Source of the DNA: a virus
Lineage: Duplodnaviria; Heunggongvirae; Uroviricota; Caudoviricetes
DNA: 8,906 nt
Reading direction: 5' to 3' (one strand)
Virus record (IMG/VR): IMGVR_UViG_2690316276_000009
Span: 1-8,906 of that record
Shown here: piece after piece, positions 1 to 8,906 of the stretch
How positions within the stretch are numbered: position 1 is the first letter of the stretch
How the letters are laid out: each line of letters begins with the position of its first letter
Program-made: the position numbers and the translations under genes
The notes under the pieces: generated by a model
What the model was told of the DNA's origin: nothing
What the model saw: the letters and a program-made list of their open reading frames with translations, nothing else
Database searches by the model: none

Positions 1-267
1 CCATGCCAGTTTCTTTTAACAAACTCCCCGCAAACCAGACAACAGTCAACCGCCTGAATTGTGAAGTATTTAAAAATTTCTCCCGCTAACTGATACCCGG
101 CTAACAGTCTGGCGTTTTCTTTTTCAGCAACGGGAAAGCAACAACCACCACACCCGCCACCAGCACACCGTCAGCCAGCACTGACATTATCCGGCTGCTG
201 CAATGCCATTCACAAAAACAGTAAGCAATCACTTTTTACCGTAACAGGTGATAATCCAGATATGTAT

Positions 268-621
268 CTACCCCAGATGAGTAATCCGAAGTTCATCCAT
301 ACCACAGGTCCTGGCTATTCTGTTGTACTCCTGAACAAGAGCAAATAATTCTGAATTAGCAACCATGAACTCATCGCAAACCCTCTGTATAGCATCACTA
401 TTCAGAATAATAACGTCTCTTCCCGAAAGACGATCAGGAGTACAGAACAAAACTGTCAAACGGCTGAAGGCCTTTGCTCGTGCTGCATTGACTATATCAA
501 TACGCTGCCTAAGGATGAAACACCCCGACGCCTCATCAATATTCACTCTACCCACACCATATGAATGATAAATATTTAATGCTGAAAAAACCATTAGACC
601 GTATAACAAACACTCAATCAA
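268..621 (-). CDS. hypothetical protein (117 aa from TTG; 108 aa if it starts at the first ATG)
   Basis: Open frame in the supplied ORF track. The 5'-most codon is TTG and I see no convincing Shine-Dalgarno before the first in-frame ATG. The region is AT-rich and lies downstream of the tRNA in the late-operon direction. No family recognised. A plus-strand ORF (365-568) overlaps it and cannot be excluded. Confidence 0.25.
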   Translation of the reverse strand: MIECLLYGLMVFSALNIYHSYGVGRVNIDEASGCFILRQRIDIVNAARAKAFSRLTVLFCTPDRLSGRDVIILNSDAIQRVCDEFMVANSELFALVQEYNRIARTCGMDELRITHLG

Positions 622-731
622 TACTTAACAGAACTTTTATTTTTGACAAACATAAAATATTTTCAACAATATCCTGAGCCAGGTATATTTCAGTATAAGG
701 CTCTGCCGGAAGGAATCTGGAAGAATGAATA

Positions 732-808
732 TGGCGCGCTGTACTGGATTCGAACCAGTGACCGATTGCTTAGAAGGCAATTGCTCTGTCCGGCTGAGCT
801 AACAACGC
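732..808 (-). tRNA. tRNA-Arg (anticodon UCU, reads AGA)
   Basis: Minus-strand sequence GCGTTGTTAGCTCAGCCGGACAGAGCAATTGCCTTCTAAGCAATCGGTCACTGGTTCGAATCCAGTACAGCGCGCCA folds by hand as a 77-nt cloverleaf: 7-bp acceptor stem with one G-U pair, D arm GCTC/GAGC, anticodon stem ATTGC/GCAAT with loop CTTCTAA (anticodon TCT), T arm ACTGG-TTCGAAT-CCAGT, encoded CCA. Lambdoid and Stx phages are known to carry rare-codon tRNA genes (ileZ/argN/argO) downstream of Q. Confidence 0.85.
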
Positions 809-885
809 TGAATACCGATAATGGACCGCCATCGGGGACCCGCCCCCGCACCAACAACCCTGTTATCATGTCGTCTGCTCTTCCN

Positions 886-930
886 NNNNNNNNNNNNNNN
901 NNNNNNNNNNNNNNNNNNNNNNNNNNNNNN
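886..930. other. assembly gap (45 N)
   Basis: Run of 45 N directly in the sequence. The flanks are not contiguous biology: a methyltransferase ORF runs into the gap from one side and a tRNA sits on the other. Confidence 0.95.
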
Positions 931-1023
931 CAGGTCAACAGAATTTTCGGGTAACGACCGGATAAATTCCAGGCAGTCGGCGTTGATTAACTCACAACTG
1001 GATATTTTTACAGCATTAAGCAT
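931..1023 (-). CDS. DNA methyltransferase, N-terminal fragment truncated by the gap
   Basis: The minus-strand ORF starting at the ATG at 1021-1023 encodes MLNAVKISSCELINADCLEFIRSLPENSVDL and then enters the N run. The xxDCLExxxxLPxxSVDL stretch is the typical N-terminus of N6-adenine/N4-cytosine DNA methyltransferases, immediately preceding the DPPY motif, which would lie in the gap. Confidence 0.45.
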
Positions 1024-1117
1024 GGATCATTAAGCCTGTCTCTGATAGGCTCATTCTGCTTTTGCGCAAAGCAGTGGGCCTGAGGTTTGCTTGTGAACCC
1101 AACGCATGAGCAGATGG

Positions 1118-1144
1118 CTGGTGGGTGCCCCTAACACCCACCAG
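1118..1144. repeat. perfect 10-bp inverted repeat (CTGGTGGGTG-N7-CACCCACCAG)
   Basis: Read directly from the sequence: 10-bp arms with a 7-nt spacer CCCCTAA, no flanking T/A run. Sits between the terminator at 1161-1187 and the methyltransferase start. Confidence 0.6.
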
Positions 1145-1160
1145 CCGCCCATTTACCACA

Positions 1161-1187
1161 AATAAAAAAGCCTTCACTGCGGAAGGC
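1161..1187 (-). terminator. candidate rho-independent terminator after the 65-aa ORF
   Basis: Minus strand: stem GCCTTC / GAAGGC with a 6-nt loop, followed by TTTTTTATT. The hairpin overlaps the stop codon of the 1174-1371 ORF. Confidence 0.55.
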
Positions 1188-1371
1188 GTCTGTAACAACC
1201 GAACTGATAGTCTGCCAGACCCGCCATAACCAGCTGGGTCAGTATTAACTGGCAGCGTTCGCGTGAAAGGTAAGTATTCTGCGCTATCTCCCCGACTGTC
1301 GCCGGTTCGGTAACGCTTAATTCATTAAACACCACTCTGGCGGTTTCTGTCATATCCTGCTGTTTTAGCAT
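1174..1371 (-). CDS. small HTH-like protein (65 aa), hypothetical; possibly a PapI/FaeA-like winged-helix regulator
   Basis: ATG start preceded by AAAGGAAAAG (Shine-Dalgarno-like). The segment ATVGEIAQNTYLSRERCQLILTQLVMAGL has the pattern of a helix-turn-helix. Bracketed by terminator-like hairpins on both sides. The family assignment is a guess. Confidence 0.45.
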   Translation of the reverse strand: MLKQQDMTETARVVFNELSVTEPATVGEIAQNTYLSRERCQLILTQLVMAGLADYQFGCYRRLPQ

Positions 1372-1490
1372 GTCTTTTCCTTTTCCGGTTAACGTGACAC
1401 ACCAATAACTCTTGTCGAAAAAGCCAGCAAGCTGAAAGACAGGTATTCACCGCCACCAGCGCGTTTACTGTACTGACGCGATTTCAGTCA

Positions 1491-1515
1491 TAAAAAACCC
1501 GCTCGGCGGCGGGTT
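1491..1515 (-). terminator. candidate rho-independent terminator about 40 nt downstream of Q (tR'-like position)
   Basis: Minus strand: AACCCGC-CGCCGA-GCGGGTT hairpin followed by TTTTTTAT. In lambdoid phages the late promoter pR', the Q-utilisation site and terminator tR' lie just downstream of Q. Confidence 0.6.
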
Positions 1516-1554
1516 GTAGAAACTCTTCTAACGTCAGGCATAAAACGCCCATCG

Positions 1555-2409
1555 TTATGACGAATTTACCACAGATTCCGGAAAAATCAACCTAGTTACC
1601 TTTTTTAACTGCCGCTCAGCCCATGCTTCTTCAATATCAAACCGGGTCACCAGCGCATCATAGAATTTCTTAACTGTTTTTTCCCATGACGCGCGTGTTA
1701 TCTGGTTTGTCACCTCGCATATAGCATTAAATGCCTCCGTTGATGGTAGTCTTTCATAGCCACGACCACCACAACGCTGGCAGTCTCTGATAACAGGCAT
1801 ACCACGTTTTACCGACTCTTCACGATGAATGGCGACACCACGCCCACGGCAATCCTTACAGGCGGTGGAAACCTCACCCTTTCCGCCACACTCCGGACAG
1901 GCAACTTTTACCACCTCCCTGACTTTTTTCCATTCTTCCCAGTAAGACGGATACACACCTTTCGTACACTTTGCCCATACCGGCGGCTTACCATCCGGAT
2001 ACTGGACCTTGTTTGTAAAAACTACGCTTTCAATAAATTTTTCCCCATAGCAACAAGGGCACTGCTTTTTACTCGCTGCGCTGCGGGCATAATCCTCAAA
2101 AGCGTACGAAGCCATAATGCGCATCACTACCGGTTTTATTTCTGCCGGAAGTTTTCTCAACGCCGCCACACGATCGCACCGACTGAGTGCATAATCTGCC
2201 AGTAATTCTGTTGCCCGCGCCCTGTCATTCATACTGATGCCCATTTTCCCCAGGAACGCAGAAAACCCCATCTCAGCCCGATTCTGTGTCATGCCCTGCG
2301 CGGCCATCACATCAGTGATACTCAGCGCATCTTTTGACGTTGAGGCCGATGCATCGGTCAGGCAAGGGGATTTTGGGGAGTAGTATTTCGGTAAATCTTC
2401 CAGTTTCAT
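1555..2409 (-). CDS. Q: antitermination protein Q (lambda Q family), 284 aa, with expanded Cys-rich zinc-binding region
   Basis: The N-terminus (YSPKSP...TDVMAAQGM...ND) and C-terminus (KTVKKFYDALV) align by eye with lambda Q (YSPKSP...TDVMAAMGM...; VKPLYDALV). The central region carries CPCC plus three CxxCxGxG-type motifs (CPECGGKG, CKDCRGRG, CQRCGGRG). The start ATG overlaps the rusA stop (ATGA). Confidence 0.85.
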   Translation of the reverse strand: MKLEDLPKYYSPKSPCLTDASASTSKDALSITDVMAAQGMTQNRAEMGFSAFLGKMGISMNDRARATELLADYALSRCDRVAALRKLPAEIKPVVMRIMASYAFEDYARSAASKKQCPCCYGEKFIESVVFTNKVQYPDGKPPVWAKCTKGVYPSYWEEWKKVREVVKVACPECGGKGEVSTACKDCRGRGVAIHREESVKRGMPVIRDCQRCGGRGYERLPSTEAFNAICEVTNQITRASWEKTVKKFYDALVTRFDIEEAWAERQLKKVTRLIFPESVVNSS

Positions 2410-2780
2410 TTTTTGACCTGCTCTTCATGCATTATGGGGTAAATCTTCACCCCCAGACGTCCACCAGATACTGGCTGACCACGAACGATATTGATTTCAT
2501 CAAACTGCTCATCGTCCATTAACACTCCCGCATGTGTCAGTGCATCCAGTGGTGCTTTCAGGATATTGTCCAGGTCACGACGGCGCTTATCCGGTGGCTC
2601 TGCAATAATCTTTATCGCCAGTCTTCCGGACAGGCTTAATTTCAGTCGCTGCTGACGGACAATAAGCGCCACATCCCGGCGATAACGCTCACCGGCTTTT
2701 GATACAAAATATGTGTTGTCACGACGTCGCCAGTAAGTATTCACCGTCGGCGGATAAGGTAAAATAAACTCATGGCGCAT
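2406..2780 (-). CDS. rusA: crossover junction endodeoxyribonuclease RusA (Holliday junction resolvase), 124 aa
   Basis: PDKRRRDLDNILKAPLDALTHAGVLMDDEQF matches the conserved RusA catalytic region (RRRDLDN ... D). Sits immediately upstream of Q as in DLP12-type and other lambdoid prophages. Stop overlaps the Q start. Confidence 0.85.
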   Translation of the reverse strand: MRHEFILPYPPTVNTYWRRRDNTYFVSKAGERYRRDVALIVRQQRLKLSLSGRLAIKIIAEPPDKRRRDLDNILKAPLDALTHAGVLMDDEQFDEINIVRGQPVSGGRLGVKIYPIMHEEQVKK

Positions 2781-2881
2781 CAGCGCAGCACCTCCTGCAC
2801 CAGTTTTTCAAACTTTCCGACTCTGGTTTCCAGCTCTGCCACACAGTCCACCAGCTCATCTACTGCTTTCTGTGCGCGATG
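2780..2881 (-). pseudogene. 3' fragment of the small ORF found intact at 3999-4241, cut at the N at 2882
   Basis: 2780-2881 is identical to 3999-4100; the match ends exactly at the N. Confidence 0.6.
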
Positions 2882-2882
2882 N

Positions 2883-3628
2883 AATTTCTTAACTGTTTTT
2901 TCCCATGACGCGCGTGTTATCTGGTTTGTCACCTCGCATATAGCATTAAATGCCTCCGTTGATGGTAGTCTTTCATAGCCACGACCACCACAACGCTGGC
3001 AGTCTCTGATAACAGGCATACCACGTTTTACCGACTCTTCACGATGAATGGCGACACCACGCCCACGGCAATCCTTACAGGCGGTGGAAACCTCACCCTT
3101 TCCGCCACACTCCGGACAGGCAACTTTTACCACCTCCCTGACTTTTTTCCATTCTTCCCAGTAAGACGGATACACACCTTTCGTACACTTTGCCCATACC
3201 GGCGGCTTACCATCCGGATACTGGATCTTGTTTGTAAAAACCTCGCTTTCAATAAATTTTTTTCCGTGACAGCAGGGGCACTGTTTTTTGCTCGCCGCGC
3301 TACGGGCATAATCTTCAAACGCATACGAAGCCATAATACGCATCACTGCCGGTTTTATTTCTGCCGGGAGTTTTCTTAACGCCGCCACGCGATCACACCG
3401 ACTGAGTGCATATTCTGTCAGCAATTCTGTTGCCCGCTCTCTGTCATTCATACTAATGCCCATTTTCCCAAGGAACGCAGAAACCCCCATCTCAGCCCGA
3501 TTCTGTGTCATGCCCTGCGCGGCCATCACATCAGTGATACTCAGCGCATCTTTTGACGTTGAGGCCGATGCATCGGTCAGGCAAGGGGATTTTGGGGAGT
3601 AGTATTTCGGTAAATCTTCCAGTTTCAT
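2883..3628 (-). pseudogene. antitermination protein Q paralogue, 3' end missing and fused in frame across the N at 2882 to the preceding fragment
   Basis: The track ORF 2780-3628 encodes Q residues 1-250 and then ...KTVKKXHRAQKAVDELVDCVAELETRVGKFEKLVQEVLR, which is the C-terminus of the 3999-4256 ORF. The true Q C-terminus (FYDALVTRF...) is absent. Confidence 0.65.
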
Positions 3629-3999
3629 TTTTTGACCTGCTCTTCATGCATTATGGGGTAAATCTTCACCCCCAGACGTCCACCAGATACTGGCTGACCA
3701 CGAACGATATTGATTTCATCAAACTGCTCATCGTCCATTAACACTCCCGCATGTGTCAGTGCATCCAGTGGTGCTTTCAGGATATTGTCCAGGTCACGAC
3801 GGCGCTTATCCGGTGGCTCTGCAATAATCTTTATCGCCAGTCTTCCGGACAGGCTTAATTTCAGTCGCTGCTGACGGACAATAAGCGCCACATCCCGGCG
3901 ATAACGCTCACCGGCTTTTGATACAAAATATGTGTTGTCACGACGTCGCCAGTAAGTATTCACCGTCGGCGGATAAGGTAAAATAAACTCATGGCGCAT
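3625..3999 (-). CDS. rusA: RusA Holliday junction resolvase (second copy, protein identical to 2406-2780)
   Basis: Protein identical to the 2406-2780 copy; same overlap with the downstream Q start. Confidence 0.85.
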   Translation of the reverse strand: MRHEFILPYPPTVNTYWRRRDNTYFVSKAGERYRRDVALIVRQQRLKLSLSGRLAIKIIAEPPDKRRRDLDNILKAPLDALTHAGVLMDDEQFDEINIVRGQPVSGGRLGVKIYPIMHEEQVKK

Positions 4000-4241
4000 C
4001 AGCGCAGCACCTCCTGCACCAGTTTTTCAAACTTTCCGACTCTGGTTTCCAGCTCTGCCACACAGTCCACCAGCTCATCTACTGCTTTCTGTGCGCGATG
4101 CTTCGCCTGCATCAGTTCCCGAAGCGCGGGTACCATATCTTTACGGATAGCGTCTTTTGTTATGCCCGTTTTTTCGAGTTGTTCAGCATGACGCAGCATT
4201 TCCTGCGCGTGTTTACGCAATTGTTCAGGGGTAAAAGTCAT
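3999..4241 (-). CDS. small phage protein, hypothetical (80 aa from the ATG at 4241; track ORF 85 aa from TTG at 4256)
   Basis: First codon of the track ORF is TTG; the first ATG gives MTFTPEQLRKHAQEML.... The N-terminus resembles those of the 55-aa and 114-aa ORFs at 8142-8650. Stop overlaps the rusA start by 1 bp. Confidence 0.5.
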   Translation of the reverse strand: MTFTPEQLRKHAQEMLRHAEQLEKTGITKDAIRKDMVPALRELMQAKHRAQKAVDELVDCVAELETRVGKFEKLVQEVLR

Positions 4242-4467
4242 TGTCTGGTTGTTCAAAAGAAACGCTCCATCTTACTGCTGTCAGTTCGTTTATTACTGTA
4301 TCTGCGCGGATTGCCGGGCTTCATGGGAGTGGAAAGCACCCGTGCACTTTCCTGGTCCACAGGCAGAAAATGTCCGTAGACTGGCCCCCTGAATCTCCAG
4401 ACAACCAGTATCACTTAAATAAGTGATAGTCTTAATACTAGTTTTTAGACTAGTCATTGGAGTACAG

Positions 4468-4833
4468 ATGATTGATGTCTTAGGGCCGGAGAAACGCAGA
4501 CGGCGTACCACACAGGAAAAGATCGCAATTGTTCAGCAGAGCTTTGAACCGGGGATGACGGTCTCCCTCGTTGCCCGGCAACATGGTGTAGCAGCCAGCC
4601 AGTTATTTCTCTGGCGTAAGCAATACCAGGAAGGAAGTCTTACTGCTGTCGCCGCCGGAGAACAGGTTGTTCCTGCCTCTGAACTTGCTGCCGCCATGAA
4701 GCAGATTAAAGAACTCCAGCGCCTGCTCGGCAAGAAAACGATGGAAAATGAACTCCTCAAAGAAGCCGTTGAATATGGACGGGCAAAAAAGTGGATAGCG
4801 CACGCGCCCTTATTGCCCGGGGATGGGGAGTAA
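4468..4833 (+). CDS. insC: IS2 transposase OrfA (InsC), 121 aa
   Basis: [54 protein letters not shown]... is the IS2 InsC sequence. The A6G slippery heptamer AAAAAAG at 4785-4791 is the known -1 frameshift site that produces the InsCD fusion. Confidence 0.85.
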
Positions 4834-5197
4834 GCTTAGTCAGCCGTTGTCTCCGGGTGTCGCGTGCGCAGTTGCACGTCATTCTCAGACGAACCGATGA
4901 CTGGATGGATGGCCGCCGCAGTCGTCACACTGATGATACGGATGTGCTTCTCCGTATACACCATGTTATCGGAGAGCTGCCCACGTATGGTTATCGTCGG
5001 GTATGGGCGCTGCTTCGCAGACAGGCAGAACTTGATGGTATGCCTGCGATCAATGCCAAACGTGTTTACCGGATCATGCGCCAGAATGCGCTGTTGCTTG
5101 AGCGAAAACCTGCTGTACCGCCATCGAAACGGGCACATACAGGCAGAGTGGCCGTGAAAGAAAGCAATCAGCGATGGTGCTCTGACGGGTTCGAGTT
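4791..5197 (+). pseudogene. insD: IS2 transposase OrfB (InsD), N-terminal about 135 codons only
   Basis: [41 protein letters not shown]... matches the InsD N-terminus. The reading frame leaves IS2 sequence at the N at 5198 and continues as the antisense of the Q fragment. Confidence 0.75.
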
Positions 5198-5198
5198 N

Positions 5199-5431
5199 CA
5201 CCGACTGAGTGCATATTCTGTCAGCAATTCTGTTGCCCGCTCTCTGTCATTCATACTAATGCCCATTTTCCCAAGGAACGCAGAAACCCCCATCTCAGCC
5301 CGATTCTGTGTCATGCCCTGCGCGGCCATCACATCAGTGATACTCAGCGCATCTTTCGACGTTGAGGCCGATGCATCAGTCAGGCCGGGGGATTTTGGGG
5401 AGTAGTATTTCGGTAAATCTTCCAGTTTCAT
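5199..5431 (-). pseudogene. antitermination protein Q, N-terminal fragment (about 77 codons), third copy
   Basis: Encodes MKLEDLPKYYSPKSPGLTDASAS...TEYALSR, matching Q copy B except for C16G, then stops being Q at the N at 5198 where IS2 sequence begins. Confidence 0.7.
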
Positions 5432-5808
5432 TTTTTGACCTGCCCTTCAAGCATTATGGGATAAATCTTCACCCCCAGACGTCCACCAGATACTGGCTGA
5501 GCACGAACGATATTGATTTCATCAAACTGCTCATCGTCCATTAGCAACCCCGCATGCGTCAGCGCATCCAGCGGCGCTTTCAGAATATTGTCCAGGTCAC
5601 GGCGGCGCTTATCCGGTGGTTCTGCAATAATTTTTATTGCCAACCTTCCGGACAGGCTTAATTTCAGCCGCTGCTGGCGAACAATAAGCGCCACTGCCCG
5701 GCGATAACGCTCCCCGGCTTTTGATACAAAATATGTGCTGCCACGACGACGCCAGTAAGTGTTCACCGTCGGCGGGTAAGGTAAAACAAATTCTATGCGC
5801 TCGGTCAT
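5428..5808 (-). CDS. rusA: RusA Holliday junction resolvase, divergent paralogue (126 aa)
   Basis: Same RusA core (RRRDLDN...DDEQF) with a different N-terminus (MTERIEFVLPYPP) and several substitutions. Start abuts the stop of the DUF968 gene. Confidence 0.85.
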   Translation of the reverse strand: MTERIEFVLPYPPTVNTYWRRRGSTYFVSKAGERYRRAVALIVRQQRLKLSLSGRLAIKIIAEPPDKRRRDLDNILKAPLDALTHAGLLMDDEQFDEINIVRAQPVSGGRLGVKIYPIMLEGQVKK

Positions 5809-6867
5809 TTATGCTTTCCACTTCAGAACACCCGAATTTCTCGCGTGCATTAAAAAACGAATCAGCAACAACAGCTGACTGCCGTGTTTCTCTTCAAAAT
5901 CTTTTACTCCGGCATGTAGTTCGTTACGGCATTTACGGCATAACGGAATAACAAACAAATCATCAGCCTTTGTTCCCATCCCTCCCAGTCCATGACCAAT
6001 GATGTGATGCGGATCATCTGCCTGATTGCCACACGTCATGCATTTCTGCGTTTTTACCCAGCGCGTGTATACAGGCATCTCTTCCCGTTGTGATTTCTGG
6101 CGCTGGAGATACTGAGCCGGTGACTCCGGATCAACGGCAATGCTGACCACCGTCTTTTCCTGTGGTGGGTTCTGTTGCTGGTGGACGTGAGGCAGTAACG
6201 CAATATTTTTTGTGCGCTGCTTCAGTATGCTGGTGGCTGTCTGCTCTCCCGGTATGATGTCGCTTTCACTGTACACAGAGCGAATTTTTTCCGCACGCAA
6301 CCCCAGCGAACGACGTAATACCGCTTCCGGTAGCGCGTCCGCCACCTGATTGCGGACCGCCCACCAGGATAATTCAGCCAGAGATAATTCACGCTCCTGC
6401 GTACCGCTTATTGCGTGACCGATGACGTCAATCATCCATGCTGACAGGTTTTGATGAGCAAGTTGCTCGAGTGATTCGGATGTCTGGTCACGCAGCTGGT
6501 TGTCGCAGTGCCAGCACAACACCATTGCGCCGGTACCATAACGGTGAATGACGGTTTCGCTGTGATGATAATCGCCGTGTGGCCACTGGCAGGATTTAAT
6601 ATGGCGCAACAGCCAGTCAGACAATGCACCAGCACCACCAGCAGCACGAATCACCCGTGCGTTACTGAAAAACGGCAGCAATGTTTTGTCTTCCACCAGC
6701 GGCTGGCGAGCGGCAGGAACGACCCCGGACGGCAGATTACGCATGCTTTTTGGTTCCGGCTCCACCAGTATTCTGCCGTTATGGAATGCTGACATTGATT
6801 CACGGCCTGGCTTAACGATAACCAGACCGAGTTCCGGTACCAGAACAGGTCGAAGTAATACCCGCAC
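5809..6867 (-). CDS. DUF968-type phage protein with C-terminal HNH-like Cys/His motif (YdfU-like), 352 aa from GTG
   Basis: GTG start preceded by GGAGGT at good spacing; alternative ATG at 6795. C-terminus CMTCGNQADDPHHIIGHGLGG...LCRKCRNELH looks like an HNH/zinc-finger nuclease motif. Position upstream of the Q-side genes parallels ydfU next to quuQ in the Qin prophage. Family assignment from recall, not a search. Confidence 0.6.
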   Translation of the reverse strand: MRVLLRPVLVPELGLVIVKPGRESMSAFHNGRILVEPEPKSMRNLPSGVVPAARQPLVEDKTLLPFFSNARVIRAAGGAGALSDWLLRHIKSCQWPHGDYHHSETVIHRYGTGAMVLCWHCDNQLRDQTSESLEQLAHQNLSAWMIDVIGHAISGTQERELSLAELSWWAVRNQVADALPEAVLRRSLGLRAEKIRSVYSESDIIPGEQTATSILKQRTKNIALLPHVHQQQNPPQEKTVVSIAVDPESPAQYLQRQKSQREEMPVYTRWVKTQKCMTCGNQADDPHHIIGHGLGGMGTKADDLFVIPLCRKCRNELHAGVKDFEEKHGSQLLLLIRFLMHARNSGVLKWKA

Positions 6868-6868
6868 A

Positions 6869-7147
6869 TTACCTCCAGATCCGTTGCTGGAATGTGCGGG
6901 ACGGACGCGTTGGCCGTTCGGAGTAAGGGAGCCTGACGGAGATTATCCAGTGACGGTAGTCGAGGCTAAGGGCTTTTTTAACCTCGCATCCGCGCCTGCG
7001 GTAACACTGAATGAGCCATTCGGCCTGTTCTTCAGTGCATGGGGGATGCTGGTACCAATCAGATTTAAATGCGTGAGAGCGCCGCCCGTGCCTGCTGGCA
7101 AAGACGGCTGAATTATCAGAATTGTGTAGTCTGGAATTTTGCGCCAT
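6869..7147 (-). CDS. hypothetical small basic protein (92 aa)
   Basis: ATG with GGAG about 9 nt upstream. Stop lies 1 nt before the GTG start of the DUF968 gene. No family recognised. Confidence 0.4.
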   Translation of the reverse strand: MAQNSRLHNSDNSAVFASRHGRRSHAFKSDWYQHPPCTEEQAEWLIQCYRRRGCEVKKALSLDYRHWIISVRLPYSERPTRPSRTFQQRIWR

Positions 7148-7213
7148 CGGCTTTCTCCGGTGGCACAGTGTTACTCAACAGGGGTTCAGCCCTGCGCTGA
7201 ATTGTAGATGAAT

Positions 7214-7474
7214 TCACTCATCTTCAAAAGCAGAAAAACCAGCCTTAATCCCAGCTTCTTTCAGAGACGGCAACGATGTGACAAATTCATTTGCACGCGA
7301 AATAAAACCATCCGTCACAAGCCCATCCACAAAATGAATTAACGCAGCTCCACTCTTCCTTTGTTGAGACTGTAAACATTTAATACGGCAGTGGCTGACA
7401 ATAGCGCCATTCTCAACGCGCACAGTATAGAGGCCATCTTCACTAAAAATTTCACGTAATTCTTCGATTTTCAT
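7214..7474 (-). CDS. hypothetical protein (86 aa from ATG; track ORF starts 1 codon earlier at TTG)
   Basis: ATG preceded by GGAAGGA. Lies between hok and the DUF968 gene, where rem lies in Qin; that is a synteny-only guess and I do not recognise the sequence. Confidence 0.4.
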   Translation of the reverse strand: MKIEELREIFSEDGLYTVRVENGAIVSHCRIKCLQSQQRKSGAALIHFVDGLVTDGFISRANEFVTSLPSLKEAGIKAGFSAFEDE

Positions 7475-7595
7475 CAACAGAATCCTTCCAGATAAATAGC
7501 ACTCCCCTGTTCGGGGTCCATCCCTCTTCTCCCTGCGCGCTACTTAAGTATTTTTGATTCTATTCCGGCACCATCTAAAACTTCAAACGCGTTGA

Positions 7596-7626
7596 AAATA
7601 AAAACAAAAACCCGCCGAAGCGGGTT
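7596..7626 (-). terminator. rho-independent terminator about 70 nt downstream of hok
   Basis: Minus strand: AACCCGC-TTCG-GCGGGTT (UUCG tetraloop) followed by TTTTTGTTTTTATTTT. Confidence 0.6.
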
Positions 7627-7694
7627 AAGTGTGGGTGCATTGAGGATGCCTGACCCATCAGAGGTGGCGAGGGATTTCTCCCCCGCCTGGTCTC

Positions 7695-7850
7695 TTACTC
7701 CTCAGGTTCGTAAGCTGTGAAGACAGCGACCTCCGTCTGGCCGGTTCGAATTCGTACCTCGCAGAGGTCTTTCCTCGTTACCAGTGCCGTCACTATGACG
7801 GTTAAACAGATGACGATCAGGGCGATTAACATCGCCTTTTGCTGCTTCAT
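7695..7850 (-). CDS. hokD: Hok/Gef-family membrane toxin, HokD/RelF-like (51 aa)
   Basis: MKQQKAMLIALIVICLTVIVTALVTRKDLCEVRIRTGQTEVAVFTAYEPEE matches HokD/RelF as I recall it and has the Hok signature (hydrophobic helix, then TRK.LCE.R). AAGGAG lies 9 nt before this ATG. The track ORF extends 19 codons upstream in frame to an ATG at 7907. Confidence 0.85.
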   Translation of the reverse strand: MKQQKAMLIALIVICLTVIVTALVTRKDLCEVRIRTGQTEVAVFTAYEPEE

Positions 7851-8141
7851 AGCCTGCTTCTCCTTGCCTTTCGGCACGTAAGAGGCTAACCTAGATTTGC
7901 CGTTCATAGATTGAGCCTCAGATTAATGTTAAGCGTCTTGCCGGACGCGTAATGTTAACTGGGGCTTTTCTCTATCTGCCTTTTGGTGTTCATGCCTGAG
8001 ACAGATAGCCTCAAGCACCCGCTGCAATTCTACTTAACTCTCCTTTTCCCGCAAACCGTTTTTATCCCCAGCGGCAAATCGAATACACCACCAGCGCCAC
8101 CGCCATCGCAATTCCTACCGTTGTTAATGCTTCAGGCCAGG

Positions 8142-8486
8142 TCATCGTAAAATATCCTCCACGCTTATCAGTCCGTTCCGCTCCAGATAACTCATCGCCT
8201 TATCCGGTAATTTGCAGTCTGGCTTCGCTTTTCTCAGTTGCCAGGTTAACTGCTTTACCAGCATGGTTAACTCATCGACCAGACGCTGATATCCCACTGG
8301 TTTGTATTCATGCAATTTACCGGCTGGCTCTGCTGCCAGCGATACCAGTGCGATTTCCAGAACAGCAATATCCATCTTATATGTGCGGATGATGTCATGG
8401 TCGATTGTGCCCGGTATGCACAGTCTCTGTGCTTCAATAGTCTCCTCTGCGTGAGCTATTAACTGCTCTCTGGTAAAAGTCGTCAT
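8142..8486 (-). CDS. hypothetical protein (114 aa), downstream member of a coupled pair
   Basis: ATG overlaps the stop of the upstream 55-aa ORF (ATGA). N-terminus MTTFTREQL... and the internal [10 protein letters not shown] parallel the 55-aa partner (MTTITKERI..., [10 protein letters not shown]). No family recognised. Confidence 0.5.
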
Positions 8487-8650
8487 GCCGTAGCCCCTTC
8501 TTGATATTTTTCAAACCAGAACACAACCGGCTCTGCTTCCAGCGATGCCAGCGCAATCCGTGCCAGTTCCATTTGTTCACCACGGGTAAGCCCGTTTTCA
8601 AGCGGGTTTTTAATGAACAATTCAATACGTTCTTTGGTAATAGTGGTCAT
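8483..8650 (-). CDS. hypothetical small protein (55 aa), upstream member of a coupled pair; absent from the ORF track
   Basis: Hand translation of the minus strand: [55 protein letters not shown]. Perfect AAGGAG 7 nt before the ATG at 8648-8650; stop TGA overlaps the ATG of the 114-aa ORF. Confidence 0.5.
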
Positions 8651-8660
8651 GTGTTACTCC

Positions 8661-8906
8661 TTAACCCGCAGTGCTTTCAACTGATGAGGGGAACAAAATC
8701 TTTTCATCAAACCCTGCATTCATATCATGAACAGCAACACACCAATCCATCGACGAACGATTATCAAGAGCCTCCATGATTTCATCCATGCGGCGTAGGT
8801 CATACAGGTAAATGCTTTTATCGCCAATGGTGTAAAAGCCAATTTTTTTCGGTGATGGATGAGGTGTACTGGCAATAGCGGACACTACCATTTGTTCTTT
8901 TTTTAA
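8661..8906 (-). CDS. hypothetical protein, 5'-partial (frame open to the window edge)
   Basis: Track ORF 8661-8891 has no in-frame stop between 8891 and the window end, so the gene probably starts outside the window. Stop TAA at 8661-8663, just before the Shine-Dalgarno of the 55-aa ORF. Confidence 0.35.
   Translation of the reverse strand, partial: LKKEQMVVSAIASTPHPSPKKIGFYTIGDKSIYLYDLRRMDEIMEALDNRSSMDWCVAVHDMNAGFDEKILFPSSVESTAG

Follow-up and report, generated by a model that had tools for sequence, protein, structure and literature searches.

An apparent triple rusA-Q array in a Shigella sonnei draft scaffold is very probably an assembly artefact drawn from two distant prophage loci

The stretch of DNA analysed here (the window, 8,906 nt) carries a Q antiterminator gene, two fragments of Q, three rusA genes and the first part of an IS2 element, with prophage flanking genes on either side (Table 1). 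It is the entire WGS record CXBB01000183.1 (8906 bp), reversed, from the draft assembly GCA_001254295.1 of Shigella sonnei, i.e. a draft scaffold and not finished sequence; on its right, the record ends within the terminus of a multi-copy IS. A sequence-only reading of the window had missed that it is a complete 8.9-kb draft scaffold, and had taken an EHEC-type strain as its model where the host is Shigella sonnei and not an EHEC-type E. coli. Non-ACGT letters occur at three places and nowhere else: a run of 46 N at 885-930 (previously given as 45 N at 886-930, which needs correcting) and single Ns at 2882 and 5198, which do fall, as had been noted, at the transitions from one gene copy to the next. 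The window is thereby divided into four pieces, the first of which has a truncated tRNA-like stretch at its terminus.

Table 1. Coordinates of the pieces, gaps, genes and segments of the window.
Feature	Position	Strand	Remarks
Piece 1	1-884		Locus X right flank, iraM/DUF3927 side; 884 nt 100% identical to locus X of S. sonnei 53G
tRNA-Arg(TCT)	732-808	minus	Inside piece 1
46-N run	885-930		Scaffold gap
Piece 2	931-2881		Y flank and X core
Y-type flank, start of piece 2	931-1553	minus	931-1489 found only at locus Y, absent from X
DNA methyltransferase N-terminus	931-1023	minus	In Y-type flank
65-aa ORF	1174-1371	minus	In Y-type flank
Q antiterminator, copy A	1555-2409	minus	Intact, X-type, 284 aa; Pfam PF03589, E = 7e-55
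rusA, copy A	2406-2780	minus	X-type, 124 aa; Pfam PF05866; identical to locus X
85-aa gene, 3' end	2781-2881	minus	X-only; same as 4000-4100 and locus X; closes piece 2
Single N	2882		Join of pieces 2 and 3
Piece 3	2883-5197		Q patch of Y type, followed by rusA and 85-aa gene of X type and by generic IS2
Q fragment, copy B	2883-3628	minus	Lacks 3' end; Y-type patch 3226-3484, X-type N-terminal codon 16
rusA, copy B	3625-3999	minus	X-type, 124 aa; identical to rusA 2406-2780
85-aa gene	3999-4256	minus	Complete; 3625-4256 is a redundant second copy of locus-X sequence
IS2, initial 820 nt	4378-5197	plus	orfA 4468-4833 (PF01527); orfB cut off
Single N	5198		Join of pieces 3 and 4
Piece 4	5199-8906		Pure Y
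Q N-terminal fragment, copy C	5199-5431	minus	77 codons, pure Y-type; 100% identical to locus Y
rusA, copy C	5428-5808	minus	Y-type, 126 aa; Pfam PF05866; 100% identical to locus Y
Locus Y left flank	5809-8906	minus	DUF968 5809-6867, 92-aa ORF, rem, hokD with sok RNA, small ORFs

In all copies every rusA and Q ORF is on the minus strand. The copy A Q protein scores 183.6 bits against PF03589 (cut-off 26.7), which places it in that family, and the 124-aa and 126-aa proteins are predicted members of the RusA Holliday-junction resolvase family from their PF05866 scores of 61.3 and 61.6 bits, respectively (cut-off 22.8). The window had been described as holding one intact Q and two Q pseudogenes. 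The intact gene stands, but the frames of the other two are cut by the Ns, so that these are contig-end truncations and not pseudogenes. Across the N at 2882, the copy B fragment is joined in frame to the last part of the copy A 85-aa gene; an ORF crossing this N is present on one contig only in the collection, CXBB01000183.1 itself.

Copies A (1664-2881) and B (2883-4100) align at an offset of 1219 with 31 mismatches over 1218 nt (97.45% identity). All 31 lie within 2007-2265 and are flanked by 343 nt and 616 nt of identical sequence, confirming that A and B diverge only in a patch of Q; 3625-4100 is identical to 2406-2881. Copy C (5199-5810) aligns with B (3396-4007) at an offset of 1803 with 47 mismatches over 612 nt. 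Scattered changes had been reported for C, which holds after an initial 158 identical nt, and so does the report of a different upstream gene (DUF968 instead of the 85-aa ORF); homology between C and B stops near 5793. The length and identity of these repeats are far beyond chance.

The closed S. sonnei genomes contain two rusA-Q modules only, approximately 670 kb apart and on the same strand (in CP104423, locus X at about 2.53 Mb and locus Y at about 1.86 Mb). The gene order at locus X is IS2 interrupted by IS21, 85-aa gene, rusA (124 aa), Q (284 aa), tRNAs and iraM, and at locus Y it is hokD, rem, DUF968, rusA (126 aa), Q (273 aa), 65-aa gene and methylase. The two Q-rusA modules are ∼95% alike and share exact common stretches of 40, 63, 69 and 343 nt; the X-type Q is 11 codons longer than the Y-type because of an 8-nt indel near the 3' end. 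Comparison with closed genomes, which had been proposed as a check and was made here within the species, therefore gave two separate loci and no tandem: each of the retrieved closed S. sonnei loci has a single module. A search of 5,426 complete E. coli genomes found a single Q-rusA as the usual layout, and no genome among them has 80% or more of 931-8906 covered at one place. No match of at least 99% across the pieces was found in them for 931-8906, 2883-5197 or 931-2881, as the source is a Shigella and was not included in the E. coli collection searched. Three E. coli matches labelled 'Q (x2) + IS3 transposase' proved to have a complete IS2 within Q, at another position, and no duplication. 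The unusual tandem resolvase-antiterminator array, one of two possibilities raised from the letters of the window, is therefore unsupported.

When the pieces were compared with the closed genomes, they mapped to these two separate loci. Piece 1 is 100% X. The X counterpart of the gap that follows it is 137 nt long in closed genomes, includes another tRNA and lies between piece 1 and the 3' end of Q; in the window, the gap is followed on its 3' side by 559 nt of locus-Y flank in place of X sequence. The Y-type flank of piece 2 has a single mismatch (at 1014) to locus Y of Ss046, its segment 1490-1552 being common to X and Y. Piece 2 follows Y as far as 1553 and X from 1594 onwards, where copy A has the X-type 8-nt indel, i.e. 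the switch occurs within the 40-nt common stretch. The rest of copy A is X-type at 31/31 patch sites, its Q protein is identical to that at locus X of closed S. sonnei and is found on at least 1000 contigs, and its homology to Y is gone past about 2771. At site 1553 the window has the Y allele (C at the 8 readable closed Y loci, A at 22/22 closed X loci). In every readable closed locus, the flank is of the same type as site 1553 and the 8-nt indel. This concordance is broken by two drafts only, the source record and a second draft, ACBEVO010000235.1 (L040), in which Y flank is likewise joined to X core; L040 has A at site 1553, and the switch points of the two drafts differ.

Piece 3 makes a switch of its own. 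It is Y-type at 31/31 patch sites and X-type at 35/35 rusA sites, changing within the 69-nt common stretch, with 0 mismatches to Y and 31 to X over 2883-3553 and 100% X-type sequence over 3554-4532. The segment 4533-4578 is absent from 53G locus X, and from 4579 on the sequence matches any IS2 copy. The IS2 of the window is uninterrupted, whereas that of locus X in closed genomes has IS21 inserted and 46 nt of IS2 missing. Piece 4 has one mismatch over 3708 nt to locus Y of CP064376. All of the differences among copies A, B and C are therefore X-versus-Y alleles of the closed genomes, with no private change in any copy. The copies had been read as three paralogs; the paralogy is real, but there are two true paralogs, and the copies in the window are X/Y mosaics without divergence of their own.

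Breaks and switches fall at repeat or variant boundaries, with the exception of the end of piece 2 (2881), which lies in X-only sequence and is unexplained. Pieces 3 and 4 both open on the base directly after an X/Y SNP. The N at 2882 occupies the SNP site equivalent to 1663, and just ahead of the common 17-45-mer at the start of piece 3, 20 X-type loci have G where 10 Y loci have A; the N at 5198 occupies the SNP site equivalent to 2176/3395. Known ambiguity was present at 2883 and 5199 and partly at 5197 (IS2 copies diverge two bases further on), and was not found at 884, 931 or 2881 within the loci compared. The first 29 nt of piece 4 already contain Y-specific SNPs, and its start is not fully explained by extension with a 29-nt overlap. 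A real IS2-Q junction at 5198 was rejected, the break being at IS2 position 820 and not at an IS end. The Ns may stand for ambiguous bases at SNP sites instead of marking gaps; our verdict is unaffected either way.

From these comparisons of sequence, the triple rusA-Q array is very probably a repeat-induced scaffolding or gap-filling artefact made from two distant prophage loci, and not a biological feature. That the pieces map to two loci, with a mosaic of alleles, indicates that the 'three tandem copies' are two distant real copies shown three times, and the joins at Ns bear out the scaffold chimera of paralogous lambdoid prophages that the sequence-only reading had favoured. The assembler, scaffolder or gap-closer would have been unable to tell apart X and Y, the two dispersed remnants of lambdoid prophages. 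This would have produced four pieces with ends in shared repeat, X/Y switches inside common stretches and redundant mutual overlaps, which would then have been chained across the 46-N gap and the two single Ns. As to the software, the pattern is consistent with edges being extended greedily by 30-mers up to ambiguous repeat bases, in the manner of SSPACE + GapFiller, and we infer the probable cause from this. GapFiller extends by 30-mers from both gap edges and halts at ambiguous overhangs, leaving repeats open (PMC3446322). A Velvet+SSPACE+GapFiller pipeline, which its authors call greedy and capable of false joins, gave a mean of 405 contigs when run on 299 S. sonnei (PMC5320598).

We considered three other ways in which the record could have arisen. 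The first is that the rusA-Q module was truly amplified in tandem and its copies later underwent gene conversion by the other prophage. The sole point in favour of this is the way the record orders its pieces, and we regard it as exceedingly unlikely. Neither junction is crossed by unbroken sequence, both being N, and that at 5198 would join the middle of IS2 to the middle of Q. The copies are neither identical nor privately diverged, all of their divergence being pre-existing X/Y alleles, and the same arrangement is absent both from the closed S. sonnei loci retrieved and from the complete E. coli genomes searched. Three real but non-adjacent copies would be present if there were a third dispersed paralog with a Y-patch Q, a 124-aa rusA, the 85-aa gene and an intact IS2. 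Piece 3, a contig without Ns, has this combination, and hybrid Q proteins that match its N-terminus and patch exactly were found on 24 and 11 contigs of further drafts. However, these hybrid Qs are never on contigs longer than 9.9 kb, while pure X Q and pure Y Q are each found on at least 1000 contigs, including 5-Mb contigs. Closed genomes show the 124-aa rusA and the 85-aa gene once per record, always beside the IS21-disrupted IS2, and piece 3 has no private variant, being exactly Y and then X. A third paralog is therefore very unlikely.

If prophages X and Y had exchanged sequence reciprocally in the source strain, the assembler adding only the redundancy and piece 3, the products would be Y-flank::X-core (piece 2) and X-flank::Y-core (pieces 1 and 4). 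Piece 2 does join Y flank to X core without an N, and the scaffold ends, with an X right flank and a Y left flank, have the form of the reciprocal product. The same kind of hybrid is seen in L040, 366 contigs of S. sonnei, the longest of 84 kb, carry a Y-left/X-right hybrid Q (P0018), and S. sonnei genomes are visibly rearranged near these loci (flanks of L026-L031). However, X and Y are direct repeats ∼670 kb apart, so that exchange would delete or duplicate 670 kb, and there are no hybrids among the closed loci examined. The two drafts switch at different points, in the 40- and 63-nt common stretches, as greedy short-k-mer walking predicts, and piece 3 would still be chimeric under exchange. 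We therefore consider exchange in the source strain improbable, although P0018 means that real X/Y exchange may have occurred in some strains. If true of this isolate, and perhaps of an S. sonnei sublineage, exchange would give rise to hybrid Q-rusA loci and imply a large chromosomal rearrangement or 670-kb duplication via prophage homology, an event that the scaffold would show in distorted form.

An assembly artefact, as we prefer to read the array, has no biological significance, each prophage having an ordinary single rusA and single Q. The case illustrates that single-N joins in drafts of IS- or prophage-rich genomes can mimic tandem gene arrays, and that they can yield chimeric alleles and annotated fusion or 'pseudogene' ORFs, and then protein database entries; the spurious ORFs here are the 282-aa fusion of Q with the 85-aa gene and an 87-aa Q fragment. 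Hybrid Q sequences, from such errors or from rare real exchange, are already in public collections.

The window resembles known misjoins in short-read drafts (PMC5320598, PMC3446322) in its N-marked joins between pieces ending in or at repeats, in sequence duplicated on either side of a one-N gap, in paralog switches inside exact common stretches of at least 30 nt and in an IS-rich host genome that breaks into hundreds of contigs. It differs in that the edge at 5199 does not follow neatly from the published 29-nt-overlap rule. Like the paralogous lambdoid prophages of EHEC O157 and Shigella, X and Y are two remnants with near-identical segments that confound short-read assembly; here the two copies are 670 kb apart in Shigella sonnei and form no tandem array. 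Each real locus corresponds to the lambdoid late-regulation module (nin-region rusA and Q), with one RusA (PF05866) overlapping the start of Q (PF03589), DUF968 or a small ORF upstream, and tRNAs, methylase and lysis genes downstream; nothing about it is unusual beyond the longer X-type Q. We take the equivalents in E. coli K-12 to be the defective prophages DLP12, with rusA-quuD, and Qin, with ydfU/DUF968-quuQ, rem and hokD.

The non-ACGT characters in the window are confined to a run of 46 N at 885-930 and single Ns at 2882 and 5198, which separate four N-free pieces. Copies A (1664-2881) and B (2883-4100) of the repeated rusA-Q segment align in register at an offset of 1219 and differ at 31 of 1218 positions, every one within 2007-2265. 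Copy C (5199-5810) lines up with B at an offset of 1803, with 47 differences over 612 positions and an initial 158 nt identical to B. The copies, offsets and single Ns described in the sequence-only reading stand; its N run, placed at 886-930 with 45 N, had to be corrected. All genes of the region lie on the minus strand except the IS2 ORFs. Two gene calls of the source record are annotation artefacts produced by the N joins: a 282-aa Q::85-aa fusion with an X residue (2780-3628) and an 87-aa Q fragment (5168-5431).

N-free pieces and features, in window coordinates
Feature	Position	Strand	Remark
Piece 1	1-884		
Piece 2	931-2881		
Piece 3	2883-5197		
Piece 4	5199-8906		
Q antiterminator, intact, 284 aa	1555-2409	minus	PF03589
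rusA, 124 aa	2406-2780	minus	PF05866; identical to 3625-3999 copy
rusA, 124 aa	3625-3999	minus	PF05866; identical to 2406-2780 copy
85-aa ORF	3999-4256	minus	
IS2, first 820 nt	4378-5197	plus	
rusA, third copy, 126 aa	5428-5808	minus	
DUF968	5809-6867	minus	
hokD ORF	within 7695-7907	minus	
sok antisense RNA	7845-8020	minus	Rfam RF01794, 112 bits

Among indexed public assemblies, an ORF reading through the N at 2882 was found on one contig only, CXBB01000183.1 of GCA_001254295.1; its length is 8906 bp, so the window spans the whole record in reverse orientation. At its right end the record stops inside the terminus of a multi-copy IS. Closed Shigella sonnei chromosomes encode identical copies of the Q (284 aa), 85-aa, rusA (124 aa) and DUF968 proteins, and the source names of identical proteins are likewise S. 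sonnei. Closed S. sonnei genomes carry two separate rusA-Q prophage remnants. Locus X (e.g. 53G, HE616528, L005) consists of IS2 with an IS21 insertion, the 85-aa gene, rusA (124 aa), Q (284 aa), tRNAs, DUF3927 and iraM; locus Y (e.g. Ss046, CP000038, L032) consists of an IS, small ORFs, hokD, (rem), DUF968, rusA (126 aa), Q (273 aa), a 65-aa ORF and a DNA methyltransferase. In CP104423, X (~2.53 Mb) and Y (~1.86 Mb) are on the same strand with ~670 kb between them. Neither Q nor rusA is duplicated in any closed locus retrieved, and 0 of 5,426 complete E. coli genomes cover 80% of 931-8906 in one place, their usual layout being methylase, small ORF, Q, rusA, DUF968.

X and Y can be aligned over ~1490-2771 and differ at 1553, by an 8-nt indel at 1594, at 1663, at a 31-SNP patch in Q (2007-2265) and at 35 rusA SNPs, with exact shared stretches of 63, 40, 68, 343 and 69 nt between these diagnostic sites. 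At the indel, X-type Q (284 aa) has the tail ...KKVTRLIFPESVVNSS and Y-type Q (273 aa) ends ...KKVTR; in E. coli, a 273-aa Q that carries the X-type patch is common, with at least 1000 contigs. Piece 1 is X throughout (100%). Piece 2 opens with Y flank (931-1489, not in X) and the Y allele at 1553, and is X-type from the indel to its end within the X-only 85-aa gene. Piece 3 starts at the base directly after SNP 1663, is Y-type at 31/31 patch sites and X-type at 35/35 rusA sites, and then runs through the 85-aa gene into a generic intact IS2, not the IS21-disrupted, 46-nt-shorter copy of every closed locus X retrieved. Piece 4, whose first base directly follows SNP 2176, is Y throughout (100%) and has a single mismatch to CP064376 over 3708 nt. 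X-type rusA and the 85-aa gene tail are present twice in the window, and the shared 69-nt stretch three times. No copy contains a substitution that is neither an X nor a Y allele, and the three-copy "divergence" is therefore the difference of two paralogs, sampled in three overlapping, partly chimeric pieces.

IS21 interrupts the IS2 beside the 85-aa gene in the retrieved closed copies of S. sonnei locus X, and base-level comparison with 53G showed that the 46 nt of IS2 at 4533-4578 are missing there; the uninterrupted IS2 of the draft looks like a collapsed-repeat path. Piece 1 carries tRNA-Arg(TCT) at 732-808 and, after it, a truncated tRNA-like stretch with which the piece ends (884). The next 137 nt before the Q 3' end in 53G hold another tRNA, of CAT anticodon type as judged by eye; the scaffold has at that spot instead 46 N and 559 nt of the other prophage's (Y) flank.

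The two-locus mapping, the X/Y mosaic and the N joins uphold the reading of the array as a scaffold artefact, which it very probably is, and not a real feature. The Sanger high-throughput pipeline (Velvet, then SSPACE, then 120 GapFiller rounds) was run on 299 S. sonnei and gave 405 contigs on average, and its own authors call it greedy, with false joins possible (PMC5320598). GapFiller grows both gap edges base by base with 30-mers and halts at ambiguous overhangs, and gaps stay open mainly in repeats (PMC3446322). A procedure of Velvet/SSPACE/GapFiller type, which may be the one used here, would drop out of phase wherever a shared stretch reaches 30 nt, would halt at X/Y SNPs, in keeping with the start of piece 3, and would place duplicated sequence to either side of the one-N gap that remains. 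Each X/Y switch observed lies within a 40-69-nt stretch; the patch, with no more than 20 nt between SNPs, contains none. This procedure does not account in full for the ends at 2881 and 5199.

A real reciprocal X/Y exchange, under which piece 2 would be genuine and so would the scaffold ends, is unlikely. Every closed locus readable in the test is concordant for flank type, site 1553 and the indel, and the discordant records are two drafts only, the source and L040, a 4-kb contig of another assembly. L040 hints at such an exchange, as does P0018, a Y-left/X-right hybrid Q; but 670 kb separate X and Y, which are direct repeats, none of the closed loci examined is hybrid, the two drafts change from Y to X at different points (1553-1594 in the source, 1489-1553 in L040), and piece 3 would be chimeric even so. 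L040 (ACBEVO010000235.1, GCA_053221695.1) is 4053 bp, N-free, and runs from one IS edge to another; in it, X-type Q (284 aa), rusA (124 aa) and the 85-aa gene are joined to the methylase flank of locus Y. By exact-sequence look-up, pure X and pure Y Q each occur on at least 1000 contigs, some ~5 Mb, and the piece-3-type hybrid on 24 contigs (273-aa form) and 11 (284-aa form), all at most 9.9 kb. P0018, which lies outside the window, has a Y N-terminus, Y patch and X C-terminus; none of its 366 S. sonnei contigs (longest 84 kb) is of Mb size, and it represents either a chimera that assembly produces repeatedly across the shared 343 nt or a lineage that has truly recombined. Given copies built of X and Y alleles, a third dispersed paralog is less probable still. 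The true tandem array that the sequence-only reading had entertained is rejected as scarcely credible: X and Y are separate loci, there are no private alleles, Ns stand at the joins, and it would need both an N-masked junction joining mid-IS2 to mid-Q and gene conversions that copy Y exactly.

A 250-bp stretch (7137-7386) covering rem and the start of a 92-aa ORF is shared by the window and CP064376 (L029) and is absent in the other nine closed loci retrieved (L023-L028, L030-L032), including Ss046; it is possibly a lineage marker. A hok/sok type I toxin-antitoxin occupies 7695-8020, and Rfam confirmed sok and the tRNA. The predicted RusA resolvase and Q antiterminator both score above Pfam cut-offs. 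The DUF968/rem/hokD-sok context resembles that of an E. coli Qin-type defective prophage. As units, the real modules are of the standard lambdoid late-control kind and offer nothing new.
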